Shown here piece after piece: positions 1,652 to 62,677 of a DNA stretch of 64,000 nt. The position numbers and the translations under genes are program-made. Every line of letters begins with the position of its first letter. Position 1 is the stretch's first letter. This DNA is from Escherichia coli (GTDB taxonomy: Bacteria > Pseudomonadota > Gammaproteobacteria > Enterobacterales > Enterobacteriaceae). The DNA lies in the NCBI RefSeq assembly GCF_051903065.1, contig NZ_CP178438.1. One strand, 5' to 3'. The notes under the pieces were generated by a model, which did no database searches, was not told where the DNA came from, and saw only the letters and a program-made list of their open reading frames with translations.

Positions 1652-2499
1652 GATGAGAGATCTCCGTTGATTTGGATTGACTTCACATCATTAATCACTG
1701 CGGTAAAACTTTACGGCATCCCGCCATTGAGCAACGCCAATGGCTCCTGATTAAAACAGAATGAATCCCCCACGAAGAAAAGATAAACCTACACGCAGGG
1801 TAAAACACACAACAACGGCATAAATGGTTTTTAAAAACTACAAAGCCCGAAGGGAAACGGATCAACAGAACGTGCAAACAAAACACCAAAAACGCAATCA
1901 GAACGCTTTCTGCTGCTGTGAATCAACAACAATACCAAAACCTACAGCTTAACCACAAAACTCAATCACAGAGCCGAATAGCGCGTTTAAAACCTGTTTA
2001 CAGATAACCCTGCCCCGAGAACAAAAACCACCAACATCAGAATCGATTTTCTTATCCTGAAAACGTTACTTTTCAACACACCATAAAAACGATTAACCAT
2101 CGATAACGTAAATCTCATCTGAATCAAAACACCAGAACCAATCATCACGCTTTTTCTGAAAAGAGCCTTATGATGAAGATAATCACCTTGCACTGAGAAA
2201 AAACACCAGGGCCAGTTAATCATCTCATCAATCTTATCGCTACAAAATCATCCATAAAACCATTTAACAAAATCATCGTAAGCACACAGTAAATCACGCC
2301 AGGTTATCTCAGCCGGATTTGCGTTTTACATAAAAACACTTGTCTCAGGTTAACGACTAAAAACACGAAAACTCATAAAAGGTTAAATGTAACATCAGAA
2401 AAATAGAATATCATATTGATTGCTTAAACAGGAAAGATTGTTTTGTAGTAGCATTAAGCTGATTTTAGTTAACGTAAAAACAGGACTGACAGGTTTACT

Positions 2500-2722
2500 A
2501 AACTGGATGTGTATCAGACAAAGCAATGTGTATAACAATACTTAATGAAAACACTTGTAGAATTGTTTATGAAAACATGTGTATGTCTGGTAAAACACTT
2601 AGTAGAAAATACGTGTATAACACTTACTGAAATGCTTAGTAAAAACACTTAGTAAAATATGTGTAGAATTATCTATTTAAAAAGATATGTATATAACACT
2701 TAATAAAAACATGTGTATATAG
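2500..2722. repeat. Array of degenerate direct repeats (ATGTGTAT / AACACTTA units), iteron- or operator-like
   Basis: At least seven copies of ATGTGTAT-like and five of AACACTTA(G/A)TA-like motifs within about 220 bp of AT-rich DNA; fused unit GTGTATAACACTTA seen at about 2612 and 2687. Confidence 0.55.
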
Positions 2723-3401
2723 TATCATACCGACATTCTCAACATCTTCAGACACTCATGCAGACTGAATGTTCGTTTCAGTTTTTCACGGCCAGCATGG
2801 GGATTTTTGTTCTGAAAACGGAGCAGATTTACTCTGGAATTATTTTTCTGTCCCCGTATTTCAGGCCCCAGAAAAGACAATCCGAAGCAAACCGTTTGTC
2901 AGCTTCCATATCATCTTTTACCCCCGGAAAGTGATCGCGTTTTACAACCAGAATGACAGCCATACTGATTATGTCGTCTCCCGGCCCCCTTCACATATAA
3001 CATGCATGCCTGTCATTGCTTACTGCTCCACATGACAGGATTTCACATACAGGATGCGCATTCAGTGTTTTTATCGCCACTATAACAGACAGATTACTGT
3101 CGCTTTTACTCTTCAGATTGTTAATCTGACCACAAGAACAGTCGAACAGTACAACGACACACCCAAGGAGGATATGAGCAGTAGTTGATAGCATGTTTTA
3201 ATTTATTATGAATAGATCAAGAATAGATCGTGAATAGTTAGAGAATAGTTCTTCAGCATCTCACAGAGTGATCAAGCCTTGAAGTGATTGCTTTTTGAAC
3301 ACAAGTCCGGATGCAATGTTTTTTTGTTAACTTCCTTGCATATTCGATTTCCATGTGATAGTGAAAATCACCAGAAGAGAATGCGATTGAGGCGTAATCA
3401 G

Positions 3402-4211
3402 ATGAAACAATATGAAGATGGTTATAACGTGAATGGATATAGCTGGGAAAATGAAACAATTGAGTATTTGTTGAATGATAAACAACTGACAGATAATCAC
3501 ATACCTGAATGGGTTAAAAAAAATGAAATTGCAGCATTCTGGTTCTGGTTAGTTATAATTAACACAGATCCCAAACTCCTTGGGGTTCGTAATGAATTAG
3601 GGTTCAATACAGCCATGATGGGGCTGATTCCTGCGGGGAGTATACCCATAACAACAATTCCTTCAGATCATGAAATGAGACTGGATGTTATAAGCAAATG
3701 GATTAATGCATTAATCCTTGACAATCAATCAGATTGCTTCATCTCAACAATGCATCAAAACTGGCTGCAGATCGAAAAGAGAAACGAAGCCAAATGGCTT
3801 AAAAAGAATACAGAACAACTCGAATGGGCATGGAAATATATCAATGCACGCATCCCGCACACGTATCTTTCCTGGTTTTATCCTGTAAGTGATAACGAAA
3901 GATACATTGCTATCGTAGTTTTACTAAAAATTTTATTCCCCGCAGATACACCATACTTACAGCAGCCAAAAGTACTTCACTATGGGGTTGCCGCAAAAGA
4001 AAAATTTTTCGACAAGATGCACAATGCATTCCGAAAACAGTTTACCGACGGAAAAAAAGATAAGCGGGTACAAATCAACGTTAAAATATCATCAGATGCA
4101 AAACGTACTCTGGACAGACTGACCAGAGAACTGAAAACAACACAACAGGCTGTCCTGGAACATCTGATTCAGAACCACAGGCTGGTGATTCAGAACCACA
4201 GACTGTATTAA
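3402..4211 (+). CDS. Hypothetical protein with C-terminal ribbon-helix-helix-like segment
   Basis: ORF 3288-4211; preferred ATG at 3402 (MKQYEDG) preceded by GAGG. C-terminus RVQINVKISSDAKRTLDRLTRELKTTQQAVLEHLIQ resembles an RHH DNA-binding motif. N-terminal about 220 aa unrecognised. Confidence 0.5.
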   Translation: MKQYEDGYNVNGYSWENETIEYLLNDKQLTDNHIPEWVKKNEIAAFWFWLVIINTDPKLLGVRNELGFNTAMMGLIPAGSIPITTIPSDHEMRLDVISKWINALILDNQSDCFISTMHQNWLQIEKRNEAKWLKKNTEQLEWAWKYINARIPHTYLSWFYPVSDNERYIAIVVLLKILFPADTPYLQQPKVLHYGVAAKEKFFDKMHNAFRKQFTDGKKDKRVQINVKISSDAKRTLDRLTRELKTTQQAVLEHLIQNHRLVIQNHRLY

Positions 4212-5155
4212 CTTTCACCACTTCTGCTCCTGCCGATTTTCTTCTTTTGGTAGTGTCTCCTGGCTGCGGATATCAGATACTTTTCCGTCATTTTGTTGCA
4301 GAACTCTTCAATGTAGTTAATCATTTTCTGGTGTGCTTTCAGCTTTTCTTCCCCGGGGGACGCTTTCAGATAAATGTCCTCCTTTTCCACAAGCGCATTG
4401 ACAAACTCCCCTAAACATCCCTGGTTATAAAGCGACGTGAAAAACAACACATCCCCCAGTCTCTCCAGTAACTGTGGTTTATCCCCGAAATGTTTTTTTA
4501 TACTTTCAAAAGGTTTTCTATTTTCCGGATCAAAAAAAACACTTAATCCCAGTCGCTTATATTCCTGGTAAAAAAGTTCAAACGTCGGGGATGCTGAACG
4601 GCAAATAAACGAAGACTGCGCCCATGGATTAAAATCTGTGACACGCCTCCCCTCCCGCACTTCCTGTCGTGTCAGCGGTGGTTCAGCAAACCAGGCGTCC
4701 AGCTCAGCCGAATCGTTATCCCTGCTCAAAACCTCATACAAACTGCCCGTGAACGGTTGAGCCGTTTGTTTTGTTGCTTCGCCTTCTGATTGTCTGAATC
4801 CATCCACTTTTCTCCGGATATTACGCGGAATCAGCATAAAAGGCGGGACATTAAGTGATAAACGTTTACCCGTCATGCGATACCATTGACCTACCTCAAC
4901 CTTAATCCGTGTATCTGACTTTAGCTCAAGTGCCATTATGTTAAGCAGGTACAGATAACGCACCGTATAACGATTAAAATGTTTCTCCGGATCAAACGAT
5001 TCTGACCGTTCTCCTCTGTACACGAGTCTGCTGCGCTTCAGTATTCGCAGAGTATATTTCCAGGCCGGACTTTTACAAATGGCGGTAACTCTGGCCTTAT
5101 TAACAATGTCGCGTAATGCATCAATCTGTTGTGCAGTCATCTCTTCCCTCCACAC
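4208..5155 (-). CDS. Hypothetical protein, no recognisable domain
   Basis: 315 aa ORF (alternative start 5140, MTAQQ). Convergent with the previous gene; stop codons overlap within TTAA. Uninterrupted long ORF, basic C-terminal tail. Confidence 0.5.
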   Translation of the reverse strand: MWREEMTAQQIDALRDIVNKARVTAICKSPAWKYTLRILKRSRLVYRGERSESFDPEKHFNRYTVRYLYLLNIMALELKSDTRIKVEVGQWYRMTGKRLSLNVPPFMLIPRNIRRKVDGFRQSEGEATKQTAQPFTGSLYEVLSRDNDSAELDAWFAEPPLTRQEVREGRRVTDFNPWAQSSFICRSASPTFELFYQEYKRLGLSVFFDPENRKPFESIKKHFGDKPQLLERLGDVLFFTSLYNQGCLGEFVNALVEKEDIYLKASPGEEKLKAHQKMINYIEEFCNKMTEKYLISAARRHYQKKKIGRSRSGES

Positions 5156-5246
5156 TTTGTCACTCCAGATTTTTTCACGCCCATATTACCTGAATGATAA
5201 ACCGGATTAGTGTGATCCGGTTCAGTGAAATCAACAGGATACCGGT

Positions 5247-6131
5247 ATGTCATTCAGCCATTCTTCCCTCTCCGCACAAGTGAAATCATATCTGACGTTT
5301 CTTCCTGAAGAAATTCGCCAGAAAATCCTTGAACATCTCCACGGTGTTATTCATTACGAGCCCGTGATTGGCATTATGGGTAAATCCGGCACCGGCAAAA
5401 GCAGTCTGTGTAATGCCATTTTTCAGTCCCGTATCTGCGCCACGCATCCCCTGAACGGCTGCACCCGCCAGGCTCATCGCCTCACCCTGCAGATTGGTGA
5501 ACGCAGAATGACGCTGGTCGATCTGCCCGGCATTGGTGAAACACCGCAGCATGATCAGGAATACCGGGAGCTTTACCGTCAGTTACTGCCGGAACTGGAT
5601 CTGATTATCTGGATCCTGCGGGCTGATGAACGTGCGTATGCTGCTGATATTGCCATGCATCAGTTTTTACTGAATGAAGGTGCAGATCCCTCGCGTTTTC
5701 TGTTTGTTCTCAGCCATGCCGATCGCGTGTTTCCTGCTGAAGAATGGAACGACGCAGAAAAATGCCCGTCCCGTCAGCAGGAACTCTCACTGGCGACAGT
5801 AACAGCCCGGGTGGCCACCCTGTTCCCGTCATCATTTCCGGTACTCTCCGTTGCAGCGCCTGTCGGCTGGAATCTTCCGGCACTGGTGTCACTGATGATC
5901 CACGCACTGCCACCACAGGCAACCAGCGCGGTTTATTCACATATCCGGGGGGAAAACCGCTCTGAACAGGCCCGGAAACACGCACAACAGACTTTTGGTG
6001 ACGCCATCGGGAAAAGTTTTGACGACGCCGTTGCCCGGTTCAGTTTTCCGGCCTGGATGTTACAGCTTCTGCGTAAAGCCCGGGCCCGCATTATCCACCT
6101 ACTGGTCACACTGTGGGATCACCTGTTCTGA
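5247..6131 (+). CDS. YeeP/YkfA/YfjP-family P-loop GTPase of CP4-like islands
   Basis: Walker A GIMGKSGTGKSS; G3-like DLPGIGE; recalled similarity to the YeeP/YfjP/YkfA family. Confidence 0.8.
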   Translation: MSFSHSSLSAQVKSYLTFLPEEIRQKILEHLHGVIHYEPVIGIMGKSGTGKSSLCNAIFQSRICATHPLNGCTRQAHRLTLQIGERRMTLVDLPGIGETPQHDQEYRELYRQLLPELDLIIWILRADERAYAADIAMHQFLLNEGADPSRFLFVLSHADRVFPAEEWNDAEKCPSRQQELSLATVTARVATLFPSSFPVLSVAAPVGWNLPALVSLMIHALPPQATSAVYSHIRGENRSEQARKHAQQTFGDAIGKSFDDAVARFSFPAWMLQLLRKARARIIHLLVTLWDHLF

Positions 6132-6249
6132 GCGCCCCGGAGTCCCCCGTGGCAACCGTATACCTTTACACGACAACGGATTACGGTAACCACTGCCGTA
6201 TACCGTCTGTCATTATCAATAACACGCTCTTTAATTTCAGAGGTCAGTC

Positions 6250-6927
6250 ATGAATACCAGAATGCTTTTTCCCCTGCTGTTCACTGTGGCATCCTTCTCC
6301 ACCTCCGCCGGTAACTGGGCTGTCAAAAACGGCTGGTGTCAGACCATGACGGAAGATGGTCAGGCGCTGGTAATGCTGAAAAATGGCACGATTGGTATTA
6401 CCGGCCTGATGCAGGGATGCCCGAATGGCGTACAGACGCTCCTGGGCAGCCGTATCAGTATTAACGGTAACCTGATCCCCACATCACAAATGTGTAATCA
6501 GCAGACAGGATTCAGGGCTGTTGAGGTGGAAGTCGGACAGGCGCCGGAAATGGTCAAAAAAGCCGTTCACTCCATAGCAGAGCGTGATGTGTCCGTTTTA
6601 CAGGCATTTGGTGTACGAATGGAATTCACCCGCGGTGATATGCTGAAGGTCTGTCCGAAATTTGTCACATCACTTGCCGGTTTTTCCCCGAAACAGACAC
6701 CCGCCATTAATAAAGATTCCGTCCTGCAGGCTGCCCGGCTGGCATACGCCCGGGAATATGACGAGGAAACAACAGAAACCGCTGATTTTGGCTCTTACGA
6801 AGTAAAAGGCAATAAGGTTGAGTTTGAAGTGTTCAATCCTGAAGACCGTGCGTACGACAAAGTGACCGTCACGGTTGGTGCTGACGGTAATGCCACCGGT
6901 GCCAGCGTTGAATTTATCGGAAAATAG
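6250..6927 (+). CDS. Secreted protein of unknown function (N-terminal signal peptide)
   Basis: 225 aa; hydrophobic N-terminus MNTRMLFPLLFTVASFSTSAG; occupies the slot downstream of the GTPase where flu (Ag43) sits in CP4-44. Confidence 0.55.
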   Translation: MNTRMLFPLLFTVASFSTSAGNWAVKNGWCQTMTEDGQALVMLKNGTIGITGLMQGCPNGVQTLLGSRISINGNLIPTSQMCNQQTGFRAVEVEVGQAPEMVKKAVHSIAERDVSVLQAFGVRMEFTRGDMLKVCPKFVTSLAGFSPKQTPAINKDSVLQAARLAYAREYDEETTETADFGSYEVKGNKVEFEVFNPEDRAYDKVTVTVGADGNATGASVEFIGK

Positions 6928-6956
6928 CCGGTATGTCGGACTGTCACCCTGTTTAA

Positions 6957-7166
6957 TTGCCCGAAGGCCCTTTCTCACGCGAACAGGCGGTTGCCGTCAC
7001 AACAGCTTACCGCAATGTGCTTATTGAAGATGACCAGGGAACGCATTTCCGGCTGGTTATCCGTAATGCTGAAGGTCAGTTGCGCTGGCGGTACTGGAAT
7101 TTTGAATCCGATGCCGGAAAACAGCTTAATGTGTGGCTCGCCAGTGAAGGGCTTCTCAGACAATAA
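6957..7166 (+). CDS. Small conserved island protein (DUF905-like)
   Basis: 69 aa ORF followed directly by a hairpin plus T-tract terminator; family recalled from CP4-like islands; start uncertain. Confidence 0.4.
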
Positions 7167-7189
7167 ACGTCATTCATTTCATCCATCAG

Positions 7190-7220
7190 GCCGCGTCTTC
7201 TCCGGGAGGCGCGGCTTTTT
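7190..7220 (+). terminator. Rho-independent terminator
   Basis: GCCGCG ... CGCGGC stem followed by TTTTT. Confidence 0.6.
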
Positions 7221-7256
7221 CATTTATATCGCTAACTCATTCATAAGGAGCAAATC

Positions 7257-8075
7257 ATGCGATTAGCAAGTCGTTTTGGTTATGCGAACCAGATACGCCG
7301 TGACCGCCCCTTAACTCGCGAAGAACTGATGCAGGTCGTCCCCAGCGTATTCGGGGAAGATAAGCACACATCCAGAAGCGAGAACTATACCTGGATCCCC
7401 ACCATCACCGTGCTGGAAAGCCTGCAGCGGGAAGGCTTTCAGCCCTTCTTTGCCTGCCAGACCCGCGTACGTGACCCGGGCCGCCGGGGGTATACCAAAC
7501 ACATGCTGCGTCTGCGCCGTGACGGGGAGATAAACGGACAACATGTCCCTGAAATCATCCTGCTGAACTCCCATGACGGTACCTCCAGCTACCAGATGCT
7601 GCCGGGTTACTTCAGGTTCGTCTGCCAGAACGGCTGCGTCTGTGGTCAGTCTCTGGGGGAAGTGCGTGTTCCGCACCGGGGAAATGTGGTGGACAGAGTC
7701 ATTGAAGGGGCTTACGAAGTGGTGGGCGTTTTTGACCGGATTGAGGAAAAGCGTGATGCCATGCAGTCGCTGGTCCTGCCGCCACCGGCACGCCAGGCGC
7801 TGGCACAGGCGGCACTGACTTACCGTTATGGTGACGAACATCAGCCCGTCACCACCGCCGACATTCTGACGCCACGACGCCGGGAGGATTACGGTAAGGA
7901 CCTGTGGAGTGCTTATCAGACCATCCAGGAAAATATGCTGAAAGGCGGGATTTCTGGTCGCAGCGCTAAAGGAAAACGTATCCACACCCGTGCCATTCAC
8001 AGCATCGACACGGACATTAAGCTCAATCGCGCATTGTGGGTGATGGCAGAAACGCTGCTGGAGAGCATGCGCTGA
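7257..8075 (+). CDS. DUF932-family protein (YfjQ/YafZ-like)
   Basis: 272 aa; recalled similarity to YfjQ/YafZ; conserved position upstream of the antirestriction gene. Confidence 0.75.
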   Translation: MRLASRFGYANQIRRDRPLTREELMQVVPSVFGEDKHTSRSENYTWIPTITVLESLQREGFQPFFACQTRVRDPGRRGYTKHMLRLRRDGEINGQHVPEIILLNSHDGTSSYQMLPGYFRFVCQNGCVCGQSLGEVRVPHRGNVVDRVIEGAYEVVGVFDRIEEKRDAMQSLVLPPPARQALAQAALTYRYGDEHQPVTTADILTPRRREDYGKDLWSAYQTIQENMLKGGISGRSAKGKRIHTRAIHSIDTDIKLNRALWVMAETLLESMR

Positions 8076-12031: not shown

Positions 12032-12295
12032 ATGCCTACCAGTGTATCCCTCAGTCCTTACTTTGAAACGTTTATCCGCGAACAAATAGAAAGTGGTCGG
12101 TACAACAATACAAGTGAAGTCATTCGTGCCGGACTTCGTGCTCTGGAAGAACGGGAACAGCAGATAAAGCTTGAATCACTCCAGAGCGCCGTGGCCGCAG
12201 GCATCAACAGCGGTGAAAGTAAAAGTGCTGAAGAGGTATTCGGGCGACTGACGCACAAATACAAAAAGATGGCAGAAGGTGAACAGCCAATATGA
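12032..12295 (+). CDS. parD: ParD-family type II antitoxin (RHH)
   Basis: 87 aa; start overlaps ParE by ATGA; motif SEVIRAGLRALEEREQ typical of ParD/COG3609. Confidence 0.8.
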   Translation: MPTSVSLSPYFETFIREQIESGRYNNTSEVIRAGLRALEEREQQIKLESLQSAVAAGINSGESKSAEEVFGRLTHKYKKMAEGEQPI

Positions 12296-12618
12296 AACTG
12301 ACTGTTTCACCATTAGCAGAACACGATCTTGAAGCTATAGGTGACTGGATCGCTCAGGATAATCCTGTCCGTGCAATCAGTTTTACCGAAGAGCTTTACC
12401 AACAATGTCTGTTGATAGCCGAATCGCCAGTACTCTACAGAGAAAGACCCGAGTTAGGGGCTGGGATCAGAGGTTGTTCGTATGGTCGTTACCTTCTGCT
12501 GTTCAGGGTACTGGATACTGAAGTTCGTATCGAACGTATCGTTCATGGTTCCCGGGATATCAACAGGGTACTTGCAGAGCCAGACGACAAACCATCAGAT
12601 CATTTCTGGCAGCCATAA
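12292..12618 (+). CDS. parE: ParE/RelE-family type II toxin
   Basis: 108 aa; 4-bp overlap with the upstream antitoxin; RelE/ParE-like size and context. Confidence 0.8.
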   Translation: MKLTVSPLAEHDLEAIGDWIAQDNPVRAISFTEELYQQCLLIAESPVLYRERPELGAGIRGCSYGRYLLLFRVLDTEVRIERIVHGSRDINRVLAEPDDKPSDHFWQP

Positions 12619-13244: not shown

Positions 13245-13928
13245 TTAACTCTCTTTTCCCCACCTGAGAAGCACCTCTTCCGCAATCCCCACAGGCAAAA
13301 ACTCCTGCTCCAGACGACCACGCGGTAAACGGGTTAAGTAGCGATAAAAATCGGCCTCCTCGTTAAGCAAGCCATCAGGTACAGCTTCCTTCGCTATGAC
13401 CGGTTCTGGAACGGCGCTATGACTGGCATACTGCTCAAACAACTCACGGTTCATGAGCAGGGCATCAAGCGTCGGACGACAACGCCTGGCTCTCGCCAGC
13501 ATCAGTAGTCCCCAGCTATCCATGTCCCCCCAATAGGCAACGCGTTTTTCATCCAGAACAGAACTGGATAGCCATTGCACGTCCAGGCCACAGCCTAAAA
13601 TCGCGATAGTGTCAGATAATGCTGGAAGATGATGCAAACACTGCTCATTTTCAACCACCAGCACTTGCGACGCGGGTAATGTTGTTTCCGCCAGTTCCGC
13701 CGTTGTTACCCGGCATTTTTTAAAAGGAAGCAAGCCGGGTGATAATGGTACAACTAAAACCCAGTGACTGGACTCATCAAAAGCATCAAGAAAAGTTGTT
13801 AATCCCTGCTCGCTGGCTTCTCCTGAAAATCGCACGTCCAACTGACCATAGTGTTGTTCCACAAACGTAATTTCGGCAACCGTCCACTGTGCCCAGTGAT
13901 TACGGTAATGCTGCGTTTTATCCACCAT
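13245..13928 (-). CDS. Toprim-like (Topo VI-A/Spo11/JetD C-terminal-type) domain protein, standalone
   Basis: 227 aa; motifs VLVVENEQCLHHL and YWGDMDSWGLLML resemble the Toprim glutamate and DxD signatures of DUF2220/JetD; family assignment from recall only. Confidence 0.5.
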   Translation of the reverse strand: MVDKTQHYRNHWAQWTVAEITFVEQHYGQLDVRFSGEASEQGLTTFLDAFDESSHWVLVVPLSPGLLPFKKCRVTTAELAETTLPASQVLVVENEQCLHHLPALSDTIAILGCGLDVQWLSSSVLDEKRVAYWGDMDSWGLLMLARARRCRPTLDALLMNRELFEQYASHSAVPEPVIAKEAVPDGLLNEEADFYRYLTRLPRGRLEQEFLPVGIAEEVLLRWGKES

Positions 13929-13945
13929 GTCAGACCTCCCGGGTA

Positions 13946-15400
13946 TCAGTCTCGTTGTTTTTCCTGCGCCAGCGTAAAGATTTGAGCCCGGAGTTGTTGT
14001 TCAGCCTGCAGGACCGCCTGCTGACGCTGCAGTGAGACTTCAGGGAGCAACTTCAACTGCCGAAGCTGCTCTTCTACCGGTACGGTCTGCCGGAAGCTTG
14101 TCAGCATGCCAAAGACCTGCGATTTAAGCTCACTGACGGTAATGTATTTTCCTCTCTGACCATCAAGCGCATTCAGTTTATGGGCAAGTGCCTGAAGCTG
14201 TGTCATTCCTTCATGCCAGCCATTCATTGTATCGACAGGAAGTACTGAGACATTAACCTGTTGCTGCCACTGCTGTGTCAGAGGCTTAGCCTGCTCCGGC
14301 CACAACGACTGAGCTTGTTCTGTAAGTTTTCTGGCATAAGTGATATTCCAGTCAGGAGGTGATTTATCCAGTCGGGCCAGCTGCTGCTGTGTCTGTGCAA
14401 TAAGATCCTGCGGTAACGGAGTCTGCTGACGCAACATCCGCAGCTGTTCAGACGTGAGAGGTGCAGGGAACGGAGCCAGTGAAGCAGCTAGCTGATTCTG
14501 TAGAGGGTCTGGCCGGTGAATAAAATGCCAGCTCCACACTGAAACTATGCTTATCACCAACATGGTACACATCCCGGCGGCAAAGGATTTCCACTTTTTA
14601 ACCGGAACAGGCATTGTCGACAGCACTTCCACATTCGGCTGCGACTGCGGTTCCCGTTGAGCAACGTAAACCCACTGTACTGCACTCCCTGGCGTATCTT
14701 CATTCGGTCCACCAGAAAAGTCTCTCGTGGATGCTATCGCATCATTTGTCACGGTGGCAGGCAACCCGATACCAGGCTGAATGCTCGAGCCGGTACTGGT
14801 TATGCCATTGCTGTTTTCCAGCCGGGCAGCACTATTGTGCATCAGGATACGCAATGTATCGAGTTGGCTGAGATGTTTTAGCTCCAGGCGCTGTAGTACC
14901 TCTCCAAGGCCTGTAAGCAGTTGCTCCACCCGGTACAGCTGGTTGATGTCGCTGTAATTTAACGGGAGCGATCGCATTCGTTGCTGCAGGCGCTGACTCA
15001 GGCTGCTGAGGATTTCCATGCGGGCATGAACTGGATGCGGCCACAGAGTCCCCCACTGATGGCTTATCAGTGCCTCGAGTATCGCCAGCCCTTCATTGAG
15101 CCCGAATAAGCCAGCCAGCTGCGTACGCGCAAGCGTATACCAGGCTGCCGTTTGCAACTCCACGCCGTTCTGCTCAAACAGTGAGAGACAAAGTTTTTCG
15201 ACATACTGCCAGCTCACATCCGGGCGAGCCGGATGTGTTAGCTTACTCAGTTCATCACGCAGGGCGGCATAATCCGGTAGCATGCGCGGGTCGCCGCCGG
15301 TTTTTAATTTACGCTTGGGGATATCATTCATGGTCAGTTGTCCATTAGACGTACCAGGGGCTATTAAAGGGTATTGTTTATGCGGCTTCACTTTCTGCAT
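13946..15400 (-). CDS. ImpA_N-domain, membrane-anchored type VI secretion accessory protein (VasL/TagA-like)
   Basis: N-terminal GGDPRMLPDYAALRDEL...DVSWQYVEKL...LQTAAWYTLAR...GLNEGLAILEALISHQWGTLWP matches the ImpA_N signature; one predicted transmembrane helix (FAAGMCTMLVISIVSVWSW); start may be the internal ATG at 15331. Confidence 0.7.
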   Translation of the reverse strand: MQKVKPHKQYPLIAPGTSNGQLTMNDIPKRKLKTGGDPRMLPDYAALRDELSKLTHPARPDVSWQYVEKLCLSLFEQNGVELQTAAWYTLARTQLAGLFGLNEGLAILEALISHQWGTLWPHPVHARMEILSSLSQRLQQRMRSLPLNYSDINQLYRVEQLLTGLGEVLQRLELKHLSQLDTLRILMHNSAARLENSNGITSTGSSIQPGIGLPATVTNDAIASTRDFSGGPNEDTPGSAVQWVYVAQREPQSQPNVEVLSTMPVPVKKWKSFAAGMCTMLVISIVSVWSWHFIHRPDPLQNQLAASLAPFPAPLTSEQLRMLRQQTPLPQDLIAQTQQQLARLDKSPPDWNITYARKLTEQAQSLWPEQAKPLTQQWQQQVNVSVLPVDTMNGWHEGMTQLQALAHKLNALDGQRGKYITVSELKSQVFGMLTSFRQTVPVEEQLRQLKLLPEVSLQRQQAVLQAEQQLRAQIFTLAQEKQRD

Positions 15401-15995
15401 ATTCGAGACTCTGCAGATACTTTAGCGCCAGCGGGTCAGCAATATATTCAACCTGCCCGTGGTGACGCTCCACCTCATCGATTATCCGGCTGAGTTCACC
15501 CCGGAAAAACTTCTTATGCAGGTTGATTCGGTTAATCCGGTAGCTTTCCAGAGGGTCATGTAGTGTCTTTTCAAGCGCAGGAGCGTCATCGCTGGAAATC
15601 ATGGCGTGTGCGTCAAAATCAAACAGCACGGCTGCCCCGCTCAGTTCTTTCACGCGCTCCATAGGCTCCAGCCGTCGGGCCATGCCGATTTTGAAGACGT
15701 TTTCACCGAAGGAGCCGATATTAGAAATTACATACACATGTCCCTGCTTCGTGAACTGGGCCATAGATTTGGCGCGTTCATACTGCTGATGAACGTCCTG
15801 TATTTTCCGCTCCAGCTCCAGACGCTGTCTTTCCAGTTCATCCCTGTGAGCACCTTCTACGGCGAGCAGGGCTTCTTCCAGGAATACCGGTACACATTTT
15901 ACCGACCGGTCGTCGATACGAAGAACGAGTGCGCCAATATCAAATACTCCCCACTCAACCAGCAGGTCCGTAACGGATGTACTGATCAGTGTCAA
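15378..15995 (-). CDS. T5orf172 (GIY-YIG-like) domain protein with N-terminal coiled coil
   Basis: GHVYVISN...FKIGMARRLEPMERVKEL...LEKTLHDPL...INLHKKFFRGEL matches the T5orf172/Mug113 pattern; overlaps tssE by 41 bp and the VasL ORF by 23 bp, so the start is uncertain. Confidence 0.55.
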   Translation of the reverse strand: MTLISTSVTDLLVEWGVFDIGALVLRIDDRSVKCVPVFLEEALLAVEGAHRDELERQRLELERKIQDVHQQYERAKSMAQFTKQGHVYVISNIGSFGENVFKIGMARRLEPMERVKELSGAAVLFDFDAHAMISSDDAPALEKTLHDPLESYRINRINLHKKFFRGELSRIIDEVERHHGQVEYIADPLALKYLQSLEYAESEAA

Positions 15996-16425
15996 GATAC
16001 TGCTGTTGCTTCAGGTGTCTCAGCATCACTCGTCCCTCGGGCATAAACTCGGTGCCGTAACGCACGAGGCCAATCCCCTTAAGCTCAGCATCAATGGCAT
16101 AACGAAGCTCGCCGGGGACGCTCTGCTCCAGCAGGATGACAGTAATTTTTTTCAGGCGCGGTTCGTATTTGAGCAGGACGGCAGACAATGTGCCCATCAG
16201 CTCATGGGCCGTTCCCGGCATGCCCTGGAGAACTCTGGTCATATCCGGCAGGCCATAGTCCGGCAGATGCGCCAGCGTGCCGGCACGGCAGTTGAGGATA
16301 CGCTGCATATTGTCGAGTACGGACAAAATGACCTGGTTCTGCTCGCTGACCTGGTGCAGGTCGAGGCCGCCGGTGAAGTTGCCATAAAGAGTTTCATACA
16401 ATGAAGGACGGGATGACTCACTCAT
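15955..16425 (-). CDS. tssE: Type VI secretion baseplate subunit TssE (gp25-like)
   Basis: 156 aa; motifs SLYETL, LDNMQRILNCRAGTLAHLPDYGLPD, LKYEPRL typical of the TssE/GPW-gp25 family. Confidence 0.75.
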   Translation of the reverse strand: MSESSRPSLYETLYGNFTGGLDLHQVSEQNQVILSVLDNMQRILNCRAGTLAHLPDYGLPDMTRVLQGMPGTAHELMGTLSAVLLKYEPRLKKITVILLEQSVPGELRYAIDAELKGIGLVRYGTEFMPEGRVMLRHLKQQQYLDTDQYIRYGPAG

Positions 16426-18457: not shown

Positions 18458-20140
18458 TTACGAAACTAACATCCCGGTAAACACATACGCCTGCAACAGC
18501 GTGATAATGCCGATAACGCTGGCAAAAATCAGACTGTGCTTCACGGTGTAGCGGAACAGTTCAGATTCTCGGCCCACCATGCCCGTCGCGGCGCAGGCCA
18601 CGGCGATAGATTGCGGGGAGATCATCTTGCCAGTTACGCCGCCGCTGGTATTTGCTGCCACCAGCAGAGTGTCAGAGACGTTGATTTGCTGCGCCGTGGT
18701 CGATTGCAGTGAACCAAACAGGGCGTTAGAGGAGGTGTCCGAGCCGGTAAGGAATACGCCCAGCCAGCCGAGAAACGGTGAGAAGAACGGGAACATCACG
18801 CCTGTACCTGCCAGTACCAGCGCCAGCGTGGTGGACATGCCGGAATAGTTGGTGACGAAAGCGAACGCCAGCACCATGCCAATCGACAATATCGGCCACT
18901 TCAGACTAATTAGCGTTTCGGCAAAGACGCCAATCCCTTTCTTGATGCCCACGCCGAGGATGAAGATAGAGATAATCGCCGCAATAAAAATAGCGGTGCC
19001 GCCAGCCGAGAGGGGGTCGAATTTAAACACCGCATCCATCGGCGTTGGTTGGGCGACAATGGGTGCCGCTTTCAACACTTGTTGATGCAAATGAGGGATC
19101 TGGAAATTAATCACCAGTGAATAAAACGCGCCGCCCGGAGCAAATAACGCTTTAAACGGCTTCATGGTCCAGATGGTGACCAGCACCGTTAAGATTAAAA
19201 ACGGTGACCACGCTCGAATGATTTGCCCCAGACTATATTCTGAAGGCACGGGACCGCCAGAAGATGGCTTATTTACCACCATCGCACCTGCGGATTGTCC
19301 CATGCTGATTGCCGTTTCGGTATTTTTCGGCCGCCAGACTTTAAGGAATAAAGCGAGTGAGACGATACTCACCAGCGCCGAAGTAATATCCGGCAGTTCC
19401 GGACCAATATAATTAGAGGTAAAGAACTGAGTGACAGCGAAGCTTCCCCCAGCAACCAGCGCCGCTGGCCACGTCTCTTTCACCCCTTTCCAGCCGTCCA
19501 TCATTGCTACCAGCCAGAACGGCACAAGAACCGACAGGAACGGTAACTGACGTCCCGCCATTGCGCCAATGTGGAACGGATCGATTCCCGTTACCTGACC
19601 GGCGACCAGAATCGGCACGCCCAACGCACCAAACGCCACCGGCGCAGTATTGGCAATCAGACACAGCCCTGCCGCGTATAAAGGTTTGAAGCCCAGGCCC
19701 ACCAGCAGAGCACCAGTAATCGCCACCGGAGCACCAAAGCCAGCCGCCCCTTCCAGCAGCGCGCCAAAGGAGAAACCAATCAGTAACACCTGCAAACGCT
19801 GATCGTCAGTGATGGAGATGACCGAGCTGCGGATAATATCAAACTGACCGCTGGCAACGGTTAATTTATAGAGGAATACCGCTGCAACAATAATCCAGGC
19901 AATAGGCCATAAACCATAAATAAAGCCATAGCCCGCAGCAGCAAATGCCATATCAATCGGCATTTTAAAGGCGAATATCGCAATCAGGATAGATAATATA
20001 AGGGTTATCGCTCCAGCGACATGTCCTTTCAGACGTAATACCGCGAGTGCAACGAAGAAGAATATTATCGGGATCAGGGCGACCAGAGCGGATAGCCCCA
20101 GTCCTCCCATCGGCATATACATTTGGGTCCAGGTAACCAT
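18458..20140 (-). CDS. glcA: Glycolate/lactate permease GlcA (LctP family)
   Basis: 560 aa polytopic membrane protein; position downstream of glcB. Confidence 0.85.
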
Positions 20141-20495
20141 ATTGTTCAGTCTCTTATTATCTTTATATGCTTGATATACTTAAGGTTGTAATAAGCAAAA
20201 GAGGACTGAACTGTAAAATATAGGCGTTATACTTTACAGCAACAGTACGCCGCTAACGCAATTGCTACCTCTGGCATAACAAGTATATCGGGTAAGGGTT
20301 TCTGTTCCGCACACGCAGGCGCAGAGTATCGTTAAGATATCCATATTGTTGTTTTAGGCCCGCTAGTAATGCGCTACGGGTATTTAATATTGTTAAACCC
20401 TGATAATCGCTCCGGTTATTTCCGGGATAAATGTACTACCGCAGTTACTATCATAGCCCCGACAATAAAACTTGCCGGGGCTTTTTTTGACGCTA

Positions 20496-22667
20496 TTAAT
20501 GACTTTCTTTTTCGCGCAAACGCCAGGCGTGTAATAACGGTTCGGTATAGCCGTTTGGCTGTTTCACGCCAAGGAAGATTAAATCGCTGGCAGCCTTAAA
20601 GGCACACGAGTTAGCGAAATTCCCCGCCATCGGACGATAAGCCGGATCGCCAGCGTTTTGCTGATCAACCACTTTCGCCATATTCTCCAGCGACGCCTGC
20701 ACCTGTTCTTTGGTCAGAATACCGTGACGTAACCAGTTGGCGATATGCTGGCTGGAGATACGCAGCGTTGCGCGGTCTTCCATCAGCGCCACATTGTGAA
20801 TATCCGGCACTTTTGAACAACCAATCCCCTGCTCCACCCAGCGCACCACGTACCCCAGAATCCCCTGCACGTTGTTATCCAGCTCTTGTTGGATCTCTTG
20901 CGCCGACCAGTTAGCGTTTTCAGCAACCGGAATAGTCAGCAGATCGTCCAGCAGCGGTTCAAATTCAGCATTGAACTCGGTCTGGGCAATGTTGGCTTGC
21001 ACGCTCTGTACGTTGGTTTGGTGGTAGTGCAGCGCATGGAGCGTAGCAGCGGTTGGTGACGGAACCCAGGCTGTGTTTGCCCCGGCACGCAGTTGGTCGC
21101 CCTTCTGGCTGTACATGTCTGCCATCAGGTCCGGCATTGCCCACATGCCTTTACCAATTTGCGCTTTACCGCGCAGCCCACAGAACAGACCGGAAAGCAC
21201 GTTATTACGCTCGTAGGCTTTGATCCAAGGCGTCGATTTCATCTGATTTTTACGCAGCATCGGGCCAGCTTCCATCACCGAATGCATTTCATCGCCGGTA
21301 CGGTCGAGGAAACCGGTATTGATGAACGCCACGCGGTTGTGCGCCTGAGCGATACAGCTACGCAAGTTCAGCGAGGTCCGACGTTCTTCATCCATAATGC
21401 CCATTTTCAGGGTATTCGGTGCCATACCGAGCATTGTCTCAATGCGGGTAAACAGTTTGTTGGCGAACGCCACTTCCAGCGGACCGTGCATTTTCGGTTT
21501 CACAATATAGACGCTGCCAGTGCGCGAGTTTTTCTGCACTTTTAAATCATAGAGGGCAATCGCGCCAGTCATGACGCCATCAAGAATGCCTTCCGGTATT
21601 TCATTACCTTCGCTGTCCCAAATCACAGGAATGGTCATCAAATGACCCACGTTGCGGATAAACAGCAACGAGCGTCCGTGCAGAGAAATTTCAGAGCCAT
21701 CGGCGGCGGTGTACTGACGATCGTCATTCAGTTTACGTACGATTTGCCGACCGTTTTTCTCCATTTTCTCTTGCAGAGTCCCCTGCATCAGGCCCAGCAG
21801 GTTGCGGTACAGCAGGATTTTATCTTCCGCATCAACCGCCGCGACCGAATCTTCGCAGTCGAGAATGGTACTGATGGCCGCTTCGACGATAACATCGTTG
21901 ATGTGCGCCGGATCGTCTTTGCCAATCCGCCCGTTGGCATCGATTTGTAGCTCAATATGCAGGCCGTTATTTTTCAGCAAAATGCAGGTCGGCGCAGCGG
22001 TATCGCCACGGTAACCGACAAACTGCGCCGGGGTACGTAACGTGGTTTCTTTACCATTTTTCAACTGGATGCGTAATTGTTTATCGACCACCTTAAACGC
22101 CACCACATCCTGATAGCTGCCGTTTTCCAGCGGTAGAGATTCATCGAGGAAACGCCGAACCCAGGCGATAACTTGCTCACCGCGTTGCGGATCGTAGCCG
22201 CTGACCATCGCCCCTTCCTGTGGGATGATGTCGCTGCCGTATAACGCATCGTACAGTGAGCCCCAGCGAGCGTTCGCCGCGTTCAGCGCGTAGCGGGTGT
22301 TCATTGCCGGAACCACCAGCTGTGGCCCCGCCTGACTGGTGATTTCGCTGTCAATGCCCGTGGTTTCCACCGTCACGCGCTCCGGTTGCGGCACCAGGTA
22401 GCCCAGTTCACGCAGGAAAGATTTATAGGCCGCTTTATCTTTTACCGGCCCCGGATTGCTGCGATGCCACTCATCAAGCGCCGCCTGAATGCGATCGCGT
22501 TCTGCCAGCAACTGACGATTTTCTGGTGCCAGATCGTGAACGATCTCATCAAAATTGCGCCAGAACGCCGCAGCGTCCAGCCCTGTTCCCGGTAAAACTT
22601 CTTCATCCACAAAACGTTTAAAATTGGCGTCAATGCGTAAACGGCCCTGGGTTATGGTTTGACTCAT
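20496..22667 (-). CDS. glcB: Malate synthase G
   Basis: 723 aa; matches recalled GlcB ([31 protein letters not shown]...). Confidence 0.95.
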
Positions 22668-22688
22668 TGTTTCTCTCCTCGTTTTCGC

Positions 22689-23093
22689 TTATTTCGCCAA
22701 CACCGCTGCTGCCGCTTTCGCGACCTGCGCATCCTGTGCTCCGGTTAAACCAGAAACGCCCACGGCACCAATAATTTGCCCATCAACAACAACCGGTACG
22801 CCGCCTTCCAGCGACGTTAATAACGGCGCAGTCACGAACGCGGTACGTCCGTTGTTCACCATCTCTTCATAGCCCTTAGTTTCACGACGCCCCAGCGCGG
22901 CGGTACGCGCTTTCTCTTGGGAGATGTAAGCCGCAATCGGCGCGCAATCGTCCATGCGACTTAACGCCAGCAGATGACCGCCGTCATCGGCAACAGCAAT
23001 GGAAACAGACCAGTTATTTTTCTGCGCCTCTTCCTGACCTGCGGCAATAATTGCACTCGCCATTTGCTGGCTAAGAATGACTTTAGTTTTCAT
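22689..23093 (-). CDS. glcG: GlcG protein
   Basis: Start MKTKVILSQQMASAIIAAGQEEA; ORF track extends to 23111. Confidence 0.85.
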   Translation of the reverse strand: MKTKVILSQQMASAIIAAGQEEAQKNNWSVSIAVADDGGHLLALSRMDDCAPIAAYISQEKARTAALGRRETKGYEEMVNNGRTAFVTAPLLTSLEGGVPVVVDGQIIGAVGVSGLTGAQDAQVAKAAAAVLAK

Positions 23094-23097
23094 TTTT

Positions 23098-24321
23098 TTA
23101 TTCCTTTTCAAGGGCTTGTTCTACAATTTCAATCCAGTGACGCACAGAGGTACGACCGGCGCTCGCCAGATGCGTCTGGCAACCAATGTTGGCGGTGACG
23201 ATCATTTCCGGTTTGCCGCTTTCCAGCGCATTCATTTTGTTATCCCGCAGCTGGCGTGCCAGATCGGGATGCGTGAACGCATATGTTCCCGCTGAACCGC
23301 AGCACAGATGGCTGTCGGGAACGTCCGTTAAGGTAAATCCAAGACGAAGCAACACTTTTTCCACTTCGCCGTTCAGCTTTTGCGCATGTTGTAGGGTACA
23401 CGGGCAGTGGAAGGCCAGTTTTTTATCGCCGCGAATTGCCAGTTTTTCCAGCGGTTCCTCGCGCAGAAGCTCGACTAAATCGACCGCCAGTTCACTGACC
23501 TGACGCGCTTTATCGGCATATAACGCATCGTTTTTCAGCATCTGCCCATACTCTTTGACAAACGCGCCGCAACCGCTGGCGGTTTGCAAAATTGCCTCGG
23601 CACCTGCTTCAATCGCGGGCCACCAGGCATCAATATTATTGCGCACCCGTGCCAGCCCTTTCTCCTGCGCATTAAGATGATAGTCCACCGCGCCACAACA
23701 GCCTGCTTCGTTAGCTGGCATGACGCTGATCCCCAGACGATCCAGCACTCGCGCAGTTGCCGCGTTGGTGTTGGGCGAAAGCGTAGGCTGGGCGCAGCCT
23801 TCCAGCATTAAAACCCGACGCTTATGGCGCAGCGGCGGACGCGGTTTAGCTTTCACCGTTTCAGCAGGCAGTTTTGCTCTGACCTGTTCCGGTAAAAACG
23901 GTCGCAGCACCAGCCCTACCTGCGTCAGCGCACGGAAGACCGCCGGACGCGGCACTACCTGGCGCAATCCTTCGCGCAGTATTCGCTCCGGCAGTGGGCG
24001 TTTCACTTTCTGCTCGACAATATCACGCCCGATATCCAGCAAATTGTGATAGCGCACACCAGAAGGACAGGTGGTTTCACAATTGCGGCAAGTGAGGCAG
24101 CGATCGAGATGCTCCTGTGTTTTAAGCGTGACTTCGTTGCCTTCCAGCACCTGTTTAATCAGATAGATGCGCCCGCGCGGCCCGTCCAGTTCATCGCCCA
24201 GAAGCTGATAGGTTGGGCAGGTTGCGGTACAAAATCCGCAGTGAACACAGGCGCGCAGGATGCTGTCGGCTTCCAGCGCGCGCGCGTTCTGCCGCATCTC
24301 TTCAGTTAATTGGGTTTGCAT
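23098..24321 (-). CDS. glcF: Glycolate oxidase iron-sulfur subunit GlcF
   Basis: Start MQTQLTEEM; two CxxCxxC ferredoxin-type clusters (CVHCGFCTATCP, CLTCRNCETTCP). Confidence 0.9.
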   Translation of the reverse strand: MQTQLTEEMRQNARALEADSILRACVHCGFCTATCPTYQLLGDELDGPRGRIYLIKQVLEGNEVTLKTQEHLDRCLTCRNCETTCPSGVRYHNLLDIGRDIVEQKVKRPLPERILREGLRQVVPRPAVFRALTQVGLVLRPFLPEQVRAKLPAETVKAKPRPPLRHKRRVLMLEGCAQPTLSPNTNAATARVLDRLGISVMPANEAGCCGAVDYHLNAQEKGLARVRNNIDAWWPAIEAGAEAILQTASGCGAFVKEYGQMLKNDALYADKARQVSELAVDLVELLREEPLEKLAIRGDKKLAFHCPCTLQHAQKLNGEVEKVLLRLGFTLTDVPDSHLCCGSAGTYAFTHPDLARQLRDNKMNALESGKPEMIVTANIGCQTHLASAGRTSVRHWIEIVEQALEKE

Positions 24322-24331
24322 AGCCTGCTCC

Positions 24332-25384
24332 TCAAAGTTCCGCGTACATGCGACCGGGGTTAAACACGCCGCAAGGGTCGAGCTGCTGTTTAAGCTGCTG
24401 GTGATAGCGGAATAAAGGAGCCGATAGCGGGGCAAAGCCACCATCTCCGGCACTAAAGCGGGTCGCATGACCGCCAGCGTTGCGGGCGATGCGATGGATT
24501 TGATTGTCCTCGGCTGTCGATTTCAGCCAGCGTAACGCCCCGCCCCAGTCGATCAGTTGCTCGCCGGGTAAATCCATCATCGGCGCATCGCTGGGTAATG
24601 AAATGCGCCATAAGGTACCTGGTAACGAGAAGAACGGCAGTTGTTGTTCACGCAATTGCTGCCAGAACTGACCCGCCACCTCTTCGCCACCCAGCAGTTC
24701 ACGCGCTGCTTTTACCGATCCTTCGCCGCCCTCAAGGCGGATCCACAACGCATTGTCGAAGTAACATAAGCCACTAATGGGTAATGGCTGGAGTTGCCAC
24801 TCGGCGATTTCACTCATGGCTTCTTGCAGGCTGATTTCCCGACGCAGGCTCAGGGAGGCGCGCGGTCGCGGTAACACTTTCATTGAGATTTCAGTGAGCA
24901 CGCCAAGACAACCGTAGCTTCCGGCCATTAACCGTGAGAGATCGTATCCGGCAACGTTTTTCATCACTTCGCCACCAAAACGCAGATGTTTTCCAGCGCC
25001 GGTAATGATGCGCGTGCCGAGGACAAAATCGCGGACCGAACCGCTCCACGGGCGACGCGGCCCCGCCAGCCCGCAGGCGACCATCCCGCCCCAGGTGGCT
25101 TCTTCACCATAATGTGGCGGCTCGCAGGGGAGCATTTGCCCCGCGCTCTCCAGCGCCGCTTCAATCGCCACCAGCGGCGTTCCGGCACGAGCGGTTATCA
25201 CCAGCTCGGTCGGGTCGTAATTAACAATGCCGCGATGACAACGCACATCCAGCGTTTGCCCGGTGACAGGGCGACCTAAAAAGGCTTTGCTATTGCTGCC
25301 CTGAATCACCAGCGGCGTTTTATTGCTAATTGCCTGATTCACCTGCTCCAGCAGCGCCTGGCTGTAATCACACTCGCGTAGCAT
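24332..25384 (-). CDS. glcE: Glycolate oxidase FAD-binding subunit GlcE
   Basis: 350 aa; synteny between glcF and glcD. Confidence 0.9.
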   Translation of the reverse strand: MLRECDYSQALLEQVNQAISNKTPLVIQGSNSKAFLGRPVTGQTLDVRCHRGIVNYDPTELVITARAGTPLVAIEAALESAGQMLPCEPPHYGEEATWGGMVACGLAGPRRPWSGSVRDFVLGTRIITGAGKHLRFGGEVMKNVAGYDLSRLMAGSYGCLGVLTEISMKVLPRPRASLSLRREISLQEAMSEIAEWQLQPLPISGLCYFDNALWIRLEGGEGSVKAARELLGGEEVAGQFWQQLREQQLPFFSLPGTLWRISLPSDAPMMDLPGEQLIDWGGALRWLKSTAEDNQIHRIARNAGGHATRFSAGDGGFAPLSAPLFRYHQQLKQQLDPCGVFNPGRMYAEL

Positions 25385-26883
25385 CAGAAACGCTCCAGTT
25401 CAGGAAAAGGTAAATGACCGTGATGCACGTGCATGGCACCAAATTCAGCACAGCGGTGTAGCGTGGGAATGTTTTTTCCTGGGTTCAGCAAACCATCCGG
25501 ATCAAACGCCGCCTTGACCGCATGAAAGGTCGTGATTTCATCGCTGTTGAACTGGGCGCACATTTGATTGATTTTTTCTCGCCCGATGCCATGTTCCCCA
25601 CTGATGCTGCCGCCAACTTCAACGCAGAGTTCGAGGATCTTCCCGCCCAGCACTTCCGCGCGGGCAAATTCACCGGGTTCGTTGGCATCGAAAAGGATTA
25701 AAGGGTGCATGTTGCCGTCTCCGGCATGAAAGACGTTGGCAACGCGTAAATCATATTGCTGCGATAAACGGGCAATGCCTTCCAGTACGCCAGGCAGCGC
25801 GCGGCGCGGGATGGTGCCATCCATGCAGTAGTAATCCGGGGAGATACGTCCTACCGCCGGGAATGCATTTTTGCGACCGGCCCAGAAACGTACGCGCTCT
25901 GCTTCGTCCTGTGCCAGACGGACGTCAGTCGCGCCCGCTTTCAACAAGATGTCGTTAACCCGCTCGCAGTCTTCCTGTACATCAGACTCCACGCCGTCCA
26001 GCTCGCATAACAAAATCGCTTCGGCGTCGACGGGATAACCGGCATGAATAAAATCTTCCGCCGCGCGGATCGACAGGTTATCCATCATCTCCAGCCCGCC
26101 GGGGATAATGCCATTGGCGATGATGTCACCAACCGCAAGTCCGGCTTTTTCTACCGAGTCAAAGCTTGCTAACAGAACCCGCGCCACGGGCGGCTTCGGC
26201 AGCAGTTTTACCGTCACTTCGGTGGTCACGCCGAGCATACCTTCCGATCCGGTGAACAACGCCAGCAGGTCAAAACCAGGCGAATCCAGCGCATCCGATC
26301 CCAGCGTCAGCGCCTCGCCATCCAGCGTTTGCACTTCAATTTTCAGCAGGTTATGTACGGTCAGACCATATTTCAGGCAGTGGACGCCGCCGGCATTTTC
26401 AGCCACATTGCCGCCAATCGAACAGGCGATTTGTGATGAAGGATCCGGCGCGTAATAGAGATTATGCGGCGCAACGGCCTGGGAGATCGCCAGGTTACGC
26501 ACGCCCGGCTGCACACGCGCGCGGCGACCAACGGGGTTAATGTCGAGGATCTCTTTAAAGCGCGCCATCACCAACAACACACCTTTTTCCAGCGGCAGCG
26601 CGCCACCAGAAAGCCCGGTGCCTGCACCACGGGTCACCACCGGTACACGCAGGCGGTGGCAGACAGCCAGAATCGCTGTCACCTGTTCCATCTGCTTAGG
26701 CAGAACAACCAGTAATGGACGCGTGCGATACGCGCTCAACCCGTCACACTCGTAAGGAATGATCTCCTCATCGGTATGCAGGATCTCCAGTCCAGGGACA
26801 TGCTCACGCAGTGCCATCAGTACCGATGTGCGGTCGACATCGGGTAAAGCGCCATCAAGACGCTCTTCGTACAAGATGCTCAT
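25384..26883 (-). CDS. glcD: Glycolate oxidase subunit GlcD (FAD-linked oxidase)
   Basis: 499 aa; first gene of the glcDEFGBA operon. Confidence 0.9.
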   Translation of the reverse strand: MSILYEERLDGALPDVDRTSVLMALREHVPGLEILHTDEEIIPYECDGLSAYRTRPLLVVLPKQMEQVTAILAVCHRLRVPVVTRGAGTGLSGGALPLEKGVLLVMARFKEILDINPVGRRARVQPGVRNLAISQAVAPHNLYYAPDPSSQIACSIGGNVAENAGGVHCLKYGLTVHNLLKIEVQTLDGEALTLGSDALDSPGFDLLALFTGSEGMLGVTTEVTVKLLPKPPVARVLLASFDSVEKAGLAVGDIIANGIIPGGLEMMDNLSIRAAEDFIHAGYPVDAEAILLCELDGVESDVQEDCERVNDILLKAGATDVRLAQDEAERVRFWAGRKNAFPAVGRISPDYYCMDGTIPRRALPGVLEGIARLSQQYDLRVANVFHAGDGNMHPLILFDANEPGEFARAEVLGGKILELCVEVGGSISGEHGIGREKINQMCAQFNSDEITTFHAVKAAFDPDGLLNPGKNIPTLHRCAEFGAMHVHHGHLPFPELERF

Positions 26884-62573: not shown

Positions 62574-62677
62574 GCTTTTTACGCCTCAAACTTTCGTTTT
62601 CGGGCATTTCGTCCAGACTTAAGTTCACAACACCTCACCGGAGCCTGCTCCGGTGAGTTCATATAAAGGAGGAACGT

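Follow-up and report, generated by a model that had tools for sequence, protein, structure and literature searches.

An intact island gene for a predicted periplasmic protein between the YeeP-type GTPase and DUF932 genes of Escherichia coli

The stretch of Escherichia coli DNA analysed here (contig NZ_CP178438.1), referred to as the window, is 64 kb long. The ORF at 6250-6927 on the + strand, here called gene X, starts with ATG, has 225 codons and ends with TAG; its RefSeq name is WP_023155728.1, 'hypothetical protein'. A Shine-Dalgarno sequence, GAGG, is located at 6240-6243, 6 nt 5' of the ATG. The gene directly follows a YeeP-like GTPase gene, as the initial annotation had stated, and the ORF map places 118 bp between the stop of the GTPase gene (6131) and the start of gene X. 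In RefSeq the four genes are annotated, in order, as 'GTPase family protein', 'hypothetical protein', 'DUF905 family protein' and 'DUF932 domain-containing protein'. The 2.1 kb around gene X are 100% identical to many complete E. coli genomes. The region between the GTPase and DUF932 genes is called the slot below. Its features are listed here with the evidence used for each.

5247-6131 (+): YeeP/YfjP/YkfA-type GTPase gene, 294 aa, left border of the slot (Pfam MMR_HSR1, 4.5e-15; Dynamin_N, 1.6e-10)
6132-6249 (+): spacer of 118 bp between the GTPase gene and gene X (sequence; promoter, GATC and OxyR scans)
6250-6927 (+): gene X, 225-aa precursor; predicted mature form of 205 aa, 22.1 kDa, pI 5.2
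6250-6309 (+): predicted signal peptide of X, residues 1-20, predicted cleavage STSA/GNW (hydropathy, conserved A-x-A/GNW, pLDDT)
6310-6669 (+): N-terminal beta-rich domain of X, residues 21-140, with invariant W23, C30, C57, C82 and C135
6706-6924 (+): C-terminal domain of X, residues 153-225, a helix plus four strands with a PepSY/cystatin-like predicted fold
6933-7166 (+): DUF905 gene (Pfam DUF905, 1.4e-27)
7188-7227 (+): intrinsic terminator-like hairpin (7188-7217; 13 pairs, 8 of them G-C) and T tract
7257-8075 (+): DUF932 gene, right border of the slot (Pfam DUF932, 2e-51)

Gene X of the window is probably co-transcribed with the GTPase and DUF905 genes as far as the terminator at 7188-7227, which probably ends the GTPase-X-DUF905 transcription unit. 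A promoter scan of the spacer (6132-6249) gave no sigma-70-like match on the + strand. The hairpin element is also located 3' of the DUF905 gene in another E. coli copy of the region (locus L013). In most other E. coli, including loci L013 and L014, the ATG of the DUF905 gene lies 5 nt after the stop of gene X, a gap which suggests translational coupling. Codon 8 of the DUF905 gene is TAA in the window (6954-6956), whereas it is TTA in other E. coli copies (L013, L014); RefSeq therefore places the start of the window gene at TTG 6957, giving 69 aa and not 77 aa.

The left part of the island (169-1651) contains frameshifted remnants of an IS110-family transposase, followed by a gene of the 'inovirus Gp2 family' (YagK/YfjJ type) on the - strand. 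At the right end, after a DUF4942 gene, a ParD/ParE-type toxin-antitoxin pair is located at 12032-12618 and is so annotated in the identical region of NZ_CP033635. To the right of the island, on the - strand at 13245-16425, lie JetD_C (Wadjet), ImpA_N plus VasL (TssA/VasL-like, T6SS), T5orf172 and gp25/TssE-like ORFs, which look like remnants or a mosaic and not like a full T6SS or Wadjet system. The core context at 18458-26883 is the glc region, with genes for a lactate/glycolate permease and malate synthase G and glcF/glcD-like genes. Rfam matches are the C0719 RNA between glcA and glcB, two naRNA4 (REP-type) elements and the ES173 sRNA; the coordinates listed with the glc and Rfam features are 20219-20440, 45675-45751, 56724-56794 and 62576-62639. 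No tRNA genes were found in the 64-kb window.

Gene X is a real, intact gene under purifying selection. A search of 5426 complete E. coli genomes with the 678-bp ORF located it in 1843 (about one third), essentially at full length in 1834, with an identity of 95% or more for almost every copy. Public data contain the exact protein on 1000 contigs or more, and every source labels it hypothetical or uncharacterised; a literature search via gene neighbours and accession numbers found no report on the protein. Carriers include E. coli from water, animals and humans, bloodstream and urinary isolates among them. Orthologues of the same length and 55-65% identity occur in Klebsiella, Citrobacter, Enterobacter, Lelliottia, Atlantibacter and Trabulsiella, where they hold the same genomic position. 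The suggestion in the initial annotation that the protein is a novelty of this island variant therefore did not hold.

The annotation as nothing else than a hypothetical protein, together with the existence of longer relatives of 330-490 aa, would suit an ORF that arose by chance or is left over from a bigger, decayed gene. Against this, the length of 225-229 aa is constant over five genera, each time with its own start, signal peptide and stop, and in Klebsiella with a terminator directly 3' of the gene. The dN/dS ratio is 0.26-0.30 among E. coli alleles and 0.13 in comparison with Klebsiella, values comparable to those of the flanking GTPase and DUF932 genes, and the AF2 models of the protein are confident. 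The conservation and selection data thus refute a chance or remnant origin, which is extremely improbable. The initial annotation had named a fragment of a larger decayed gene, such as an autotransporter gene, as the outcome that would refute its reading. Full length in five genera and the dN/dS values speak against such a fragment, and tblastn and blastp comparisons with flu of K-12 returned only noise (best E 0.016 in a 10-sequence database). A profile of X gave no match to K-12 flu. Descent from Ag43 or from another K-12 island gene was rejected, since no nucleotide or protein similarity was found to the CP4-44, CP4-57 and CP4-6 stretches. A tblastn search of GenBank phages with X gave no match.

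The initial annotation had pointed out that in K-12 the CP4-44 island carries flu at the position of gene X, and this is correct: the layout there is yeeP (pseudogene)-isrC-flu-yeeR. The order GTPase, X, DUF932 is found in E. coli, Klebsiella and Citrobacter as well as for relatives of 23-33% identity, such as P0069 and P0070, the latter after a WYL gene. At every island locus with enough sequence the X-family genes are located 5' of the DUF932 gene, either directly or with a DUF905 gene, a paralogue or a DUF4234 gene in between. The junctions in the complete E. coli genomes were counted as follows.

yeeP-agn43 junction, covered at 80% or more: at least 1885 of 5426 genomes
GTPase-WYL regulator-X junction: 1609 of 5426 genomes
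Window-type direct GTPase-X junction: 396 of 5426 genomes
CP4-57-type direct GTPase-DUF932 junction (yfjP-yfjQ): 571 of 5426 genomes

Gene X is an accessory gene of CP4-44/CP4-57-like integrative islands of the Enterobacteriaceae, and Ag43 is an alternative cargo of the same slot. It is a native, diversifying occupant of this slot and not an oddity of the window island.

The N-terminus of X consists of MNTR, a hydrophobic core at residues 5-16 and the sequence S-T-S-A/GNW. The 11-residue Kyte-Doolittle mean reaches 2.06 in the core, and no second hydrophobic segment is present. The cleavage site was placed by the -3/-1 rule from hydropathy and inspection of the motif, not with a dedicated predictor. 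Among the orthologues the A-x-A/GNW junction is kept while the sequence of the core diverges, which is the behaviour of a signal peptide. The protein shows the features of a Sec-exported soluble periplasmic protein: n-, h- and c-regions, small residues at -3/-1, no lipobox (L-x-x-C) and no further transmembrane segment. Neither a beta-barrel nor a passenger domain of an autotransporter was found, with no Pfam match at E<=0.1. Searches of Pfam, NCBIfam, PHROGs, PADLOC and PDB sequences, including profiles and isolated domains, remained empty, in agreement with the initial annotation of a signal-peptide protein with no recognisable domain.

The AF2 model of the whole protein has a pLDDT of 81, with disorder limited to residues 1-16 (pLDDT below 50); the N-terminal domain modelled alone reaches a pLDDT of 92 and a pTM of 0.86. 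This domain is predicted to adopt a beta fold that is weakly similar to IalB (PDB 3dtd), the sole notable fold match; the likeness is limited to this domain and comes with 7-8% identity, and the profile of the IalB Pfam family gave no match to X. The predicted C-terminal domain, a helix and a four-strand antiparallel sheet, resembles PepSY and cystatin folds, which are shared by YpeB, YpmB, M4 protease propeptides, cystatins and the colicin M immunity protein. X does not score above the gathering threshold of the PepSY profile (PF03413), and one of its relatives gives a sub-threshold match. These modelled likenesses are resemblances, not memberships. PepSY/cystatin-like domains typically bind or inhibit enzymes outside the cytoplasm. 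A BFVD fold search with X returned two unnamed phage proteins of ~150 aa (E ~1e-5), which were uninformative. Down to 23% identity only one Trp and four Cys are invariant in the N-terminal domain, a pattern typical of an extracytoplasmic domain that is stabilised by disulfides and has no evident active site. The invariant positions of X are Trp, Cys, Gly and Asn, none of them of catalytic type. X is a small, acidic, globular protein; it is predicted to be exported by Sec, cleaved after Ala20 and soluble in the periplasm, with two disulfides.

Only 61 relatives of X were recovered when 1.84 billion representatives were searched exhaustively with a profile; some of them are 330-490 aa long. A 7945-aa match with 53 matched stretches (P0061) was judged spurious, being a compositionally biased repeat adhesin. 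All 24 relatives that were inspected carry a signal peptide or a lipobox at the N-terminus. A lipobox was present in eight long relatives, with Asp at +2 in seven of the eight, and absent from all relatives of 225-237 aa. Asp at +2 is the inner-membrane retention signal for lipoproteins in Enterobacteriaceae. The presence of a signal peptide or lipobox in the relatives, mostly with Asp at +2, thus points to the periplasm and not to the cell surface. The initial annotation had left the choice between a surface and a periplasmic factor; a periplasmic location is likely, and a surface location finds no counterpart in a beta-barrel, a lipobox or an autotransporter part.

The X family is diverse, as might be expected of genes under conflict-driven selection. 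Some of its paralogues are short and soluble, others are long lipoproteins, and the two kinds sometimes stand in tandem. Tandem short and long forms and a WYL-X(long) form are located at 5001-7570 of locus L021 and 1760-4530 of locus L030. In a metagenomic island a soluble X of 229 aa is followed by a lipoprotein paralogue of 427 aa and a DUF4234 membrane protein; the 427-aa paralogue consists of an X-like N-terminal domain and a C-terminal domain common to the long relatives. Another contig has the order GTPase, WYL, long X (491 aa, lipoprotein), DUF4234, DUF932. No Pfam family matched the additional C-terminal domain of the long forms. A relative of 230 aa and 33% identity (P0065) does not lie in the GTPase-DUF932 context: it belongs to a tight co-directional array (locus L020, 1-10693) that also has genes for an endolysin-like protein and an acetyltransferase, and this array is probably a phage or a similar element.

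Most E. coli copies of X have a gene for a WYL-domain regulator directly 5' of them. Copies without a WYL gene in Klebsiella, Citrobacter, Atlantibacter and Trabulsiella, in two metagenomic relatives and in two rare E. coli have a cluster of GATC sites within the 290-400 bp upstream of X. The spacing of the sites is 13/18/43-44 nt; it is 13/18/13 in locus L008, and locus L021 has the first three sites only. Each of 15 loci has the three-site motif exactly once, in every case upstream of X. Its core aligns with the regulatory region of agn43 in K-12, 'AACGATCAATA...ATCGATCGTT'. The 15-mers that start inside the third and fourth GATC sites agree with the consensus of an OxyR half site, ATAGnTnnnAnCTAT, in 9 of 10 positions. 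Matches of this quality number eight in 78 kb of these X-orthologue loci, and six of them are at these two sites. In Klebsiella a promoter-like TTGATC-N18-TAGAAT overlaps the first and second GATC sites, and together with the terminator mentioned above gene X appears to be a self-contained cassette there. An IsrC/IS102 leader RNA was not found upstream of X or its orthologues. The two rare E. coli islands, of strains R32_14_1F (locus L022) and ET881 (locus L023), are located at thrW and have the Klebsiella-type element with four GATC sites followed by X; the upstream region of X in R32_14_1F is at 3970-4255 of L022, and in ET881 X is annotated as truncated.

The GATC element upstream of the orthologues may thus be a Dam/OxyR phase switch like that of agn43, and the expression of X would be conditional in most lineages, by way of either the WYL regulator or this element. 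The slot idea of the initial annotation is strengthened by these orthologues in other genera, whose GATC/OxyR-like element aligns with the agn43 switch. The window copy belongs to a minority arrangement with neither the WYL gene nor the GATC/OxyR-like element. The spacer at 6132-6249 contains no GATC site, no 15-mer with 8/10 or better to an OxyR half site is present at 5900-6260, and the agn43 switch core has no match anywhere in the 64-kb window. Only the last ~50-60 bp before the ATG are homologous to the WYL-X spacer of other E. coli. In a comparison of window positions 6132-6199 with 4968-5943 of locus L013, the window lacks a segment of ~0.9 kb with the WYL regulator that is present in most E. 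coli.

The agn43/flu cassette resembles the X loci in its position directly 3' of a YeeP-type GTPase gene, in a product that is exported to the envelope, as predicted for X, and in a GATC cluster that aligns with the element of the X orthologues, where OxyR half-site-like 15-mers are also present. It differs in its product, an autotransporter of 1039 aa without sequence similarity to the 225-aa, presumably soluble X; in the number of GATC sites, three (19/13 nt) as opposed to four upstream of the X orthologues; and in the IsrC/IS102 leader, which the X loci lack, the X of the window being without any such switch element. In agn43 the three GATC sites lie within a single OxyR repressor site and binding is blocked by methylation; the GATC pairs of gtr are 13 nt apart inside OxyR half sites (PMC2909390). 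The gtr and opvAB loci of Salmonella, phase-variable under OxyR and Dam, are reported to have four GATC sites, 13-nt pairs included, upstream of horizontally acquired envelope genes (PMC2909390; PMC4856963). A 13-nt pair of this type recurs upstream of the X orthologues. The gtr and opvAB products are an inner-membrane glycosyltransferase and modifiers of O-antigen length, in contrast to the predicted soluble periplasmic X.

The yfjR-ypjK-yfjS-yfjT cassette of CP4-57 and the yafY-ykfB-ykfF cassette of CP4-6 in K-12 likewise consist of a WYL/DeoR-type regulator gene followed by genes for exported proteins or lipoproteins. They belong to the island family of X and are located between the GTPase and the antirestriction/RadC genes; in CP4-6 a DUF905 gene follows. 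These K-12 cassettes lie 3' of the DUF932 gene, whereas X lies 5' of it. Blastp and profile searches found no significant similarity of X, or of the extra C-terminal domain in its long relatives, to YfjS, YafY, YfjT, YkfB or YpjK; the family PF20494, to which YfjS belongs, gave no match to X. X, DUF905 and DUF932 matched no defence model of PADLOC-DB v2. The GTPase gave a weak partial match to LeoBC in this database, and the WYL protein of other E. coli matched the WYL models.

The explanation preferred here is that of an intact island gene whose product is a periplasmic binding protein with conditional expression and, speculatively, a role as a shield. X would be exported by Sec, oxidised to two disulfides and resident in the periplasm. 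Most likely it is non-catalytic and works by binding, because conserved residues of catalytic type are absent. For most lineages, expression would be conditional, or confined to a subpopulation, under the WYL regulator or the Dam/OxyR switch. Speculatively, the island would thus encode a shield or inhibitor for the periplasm: X would bind a protein that acts on the envelope, such as a component of a phage, a lytic enzyme or a toxin active in the periplasm, and the binding would change the susceptibility of the expressing subpopulation. This speculation draws on the inhibitor-type fold class of the C-terminal domain, on diversification and tandem paralogy, on the mobile-element context and on an analogy to other OxyR/Dam-controlled envelope loci. 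Counting against the explanation are the empty searches of PADLOC-DB and of GenBank phages, the absence of both control elements from the window copy, and the departures of the GATC element from the agn43 switch in spacing and leader RNA. The explanation as a whole is given a probability of about 0.45, slightly below even odds.

X could instead be an envelope factor for host interaction or colonisation, IalB-like and acting on host cells or on host-derived molecules. Its islands are of a type with virulence cargo such as Ag43, and factors exposed to the host are typically phase-variable (PMC2909390). The identity to IalB of 7-8% without a match to the Pfam family, the lack of an evident route past the outer membrane and the presence of the gene in E. 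coli regardless of whether the source is water, an animal or a human make this unlikely. IalB itself has no known biochemical function, which also counts against it. A service to the island itself, as a periplasmic factor of entry exclusion or transfer that acts with the DUF905, DUF932, antirestriction and RadC (early-entry-like) genes, would explain why the linkage of X to the GTPase-DUF932-antirestriction-RadC block is invariant even in distant relatives, and would suit the gap of only 5 nt between X and DUF905 in most E. coli. The slot is, however, empty in 571 genomes and filled with Ag43 in others, so that X is dispensable for the block; transfer machinery was not seen in the island part of the window, and VirB8-like fold matches are generic for the fold class. 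Such a service is therefore improbable.

The slot common to X and agn43, with an agn43-like element upstream of the orthologues, might also suggest that X takes over the function of Ag43 as an adhesin or aggregation factor at the surface. X has no beta-barrel or passenger domain, no Pfam match, no similarity to Flu and no lipobox, its lipoprotein relatives have Asp at +2, and its small, acidic, globular form does not favour adhesion either; with no feature for targeting to the outer membrane, a role as adhesin is very unlikely. A broader version of the preferred reading takes the position after the GTPase gene as a general site of conditional expression, at which an agn43-type Dam/OxyR switch or a WYL regulator drives swappable envelope cargo, with the X family as a second cargo class that is no autotransporter, a rapidly diversifying periplasmic immunity or exclusion protein expressed in a subpopulation against phages or toxins that act in the periplasm. 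This generalisation is rather doubtful.

Gene X is present in about one third of the complete E. coli genomes, by its occurrence an ordinary and very common accessory gene, yet it has neither a name nor a described family. Ag43, with which it has the slot in common, is among the phase-variable surface proteins that have been studied best. If X is a periplasmic inhibitor or immunity factor, it would bring a new fold combination into that class; if it is not, it would be an ordinary accessory gene. The apparent connection of X with a switch like that of Ag43 in sister genera offers a new lead, modest but open to testing. If it is true, X would be the first soluble periplasmic protein under an epigenetic switch of the Ag43 type. 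A working switch would extend the Ag43 paradigm to a new cargo and a new compartment, and would give a handle on what common 'cryptic' islands do for their hosts.
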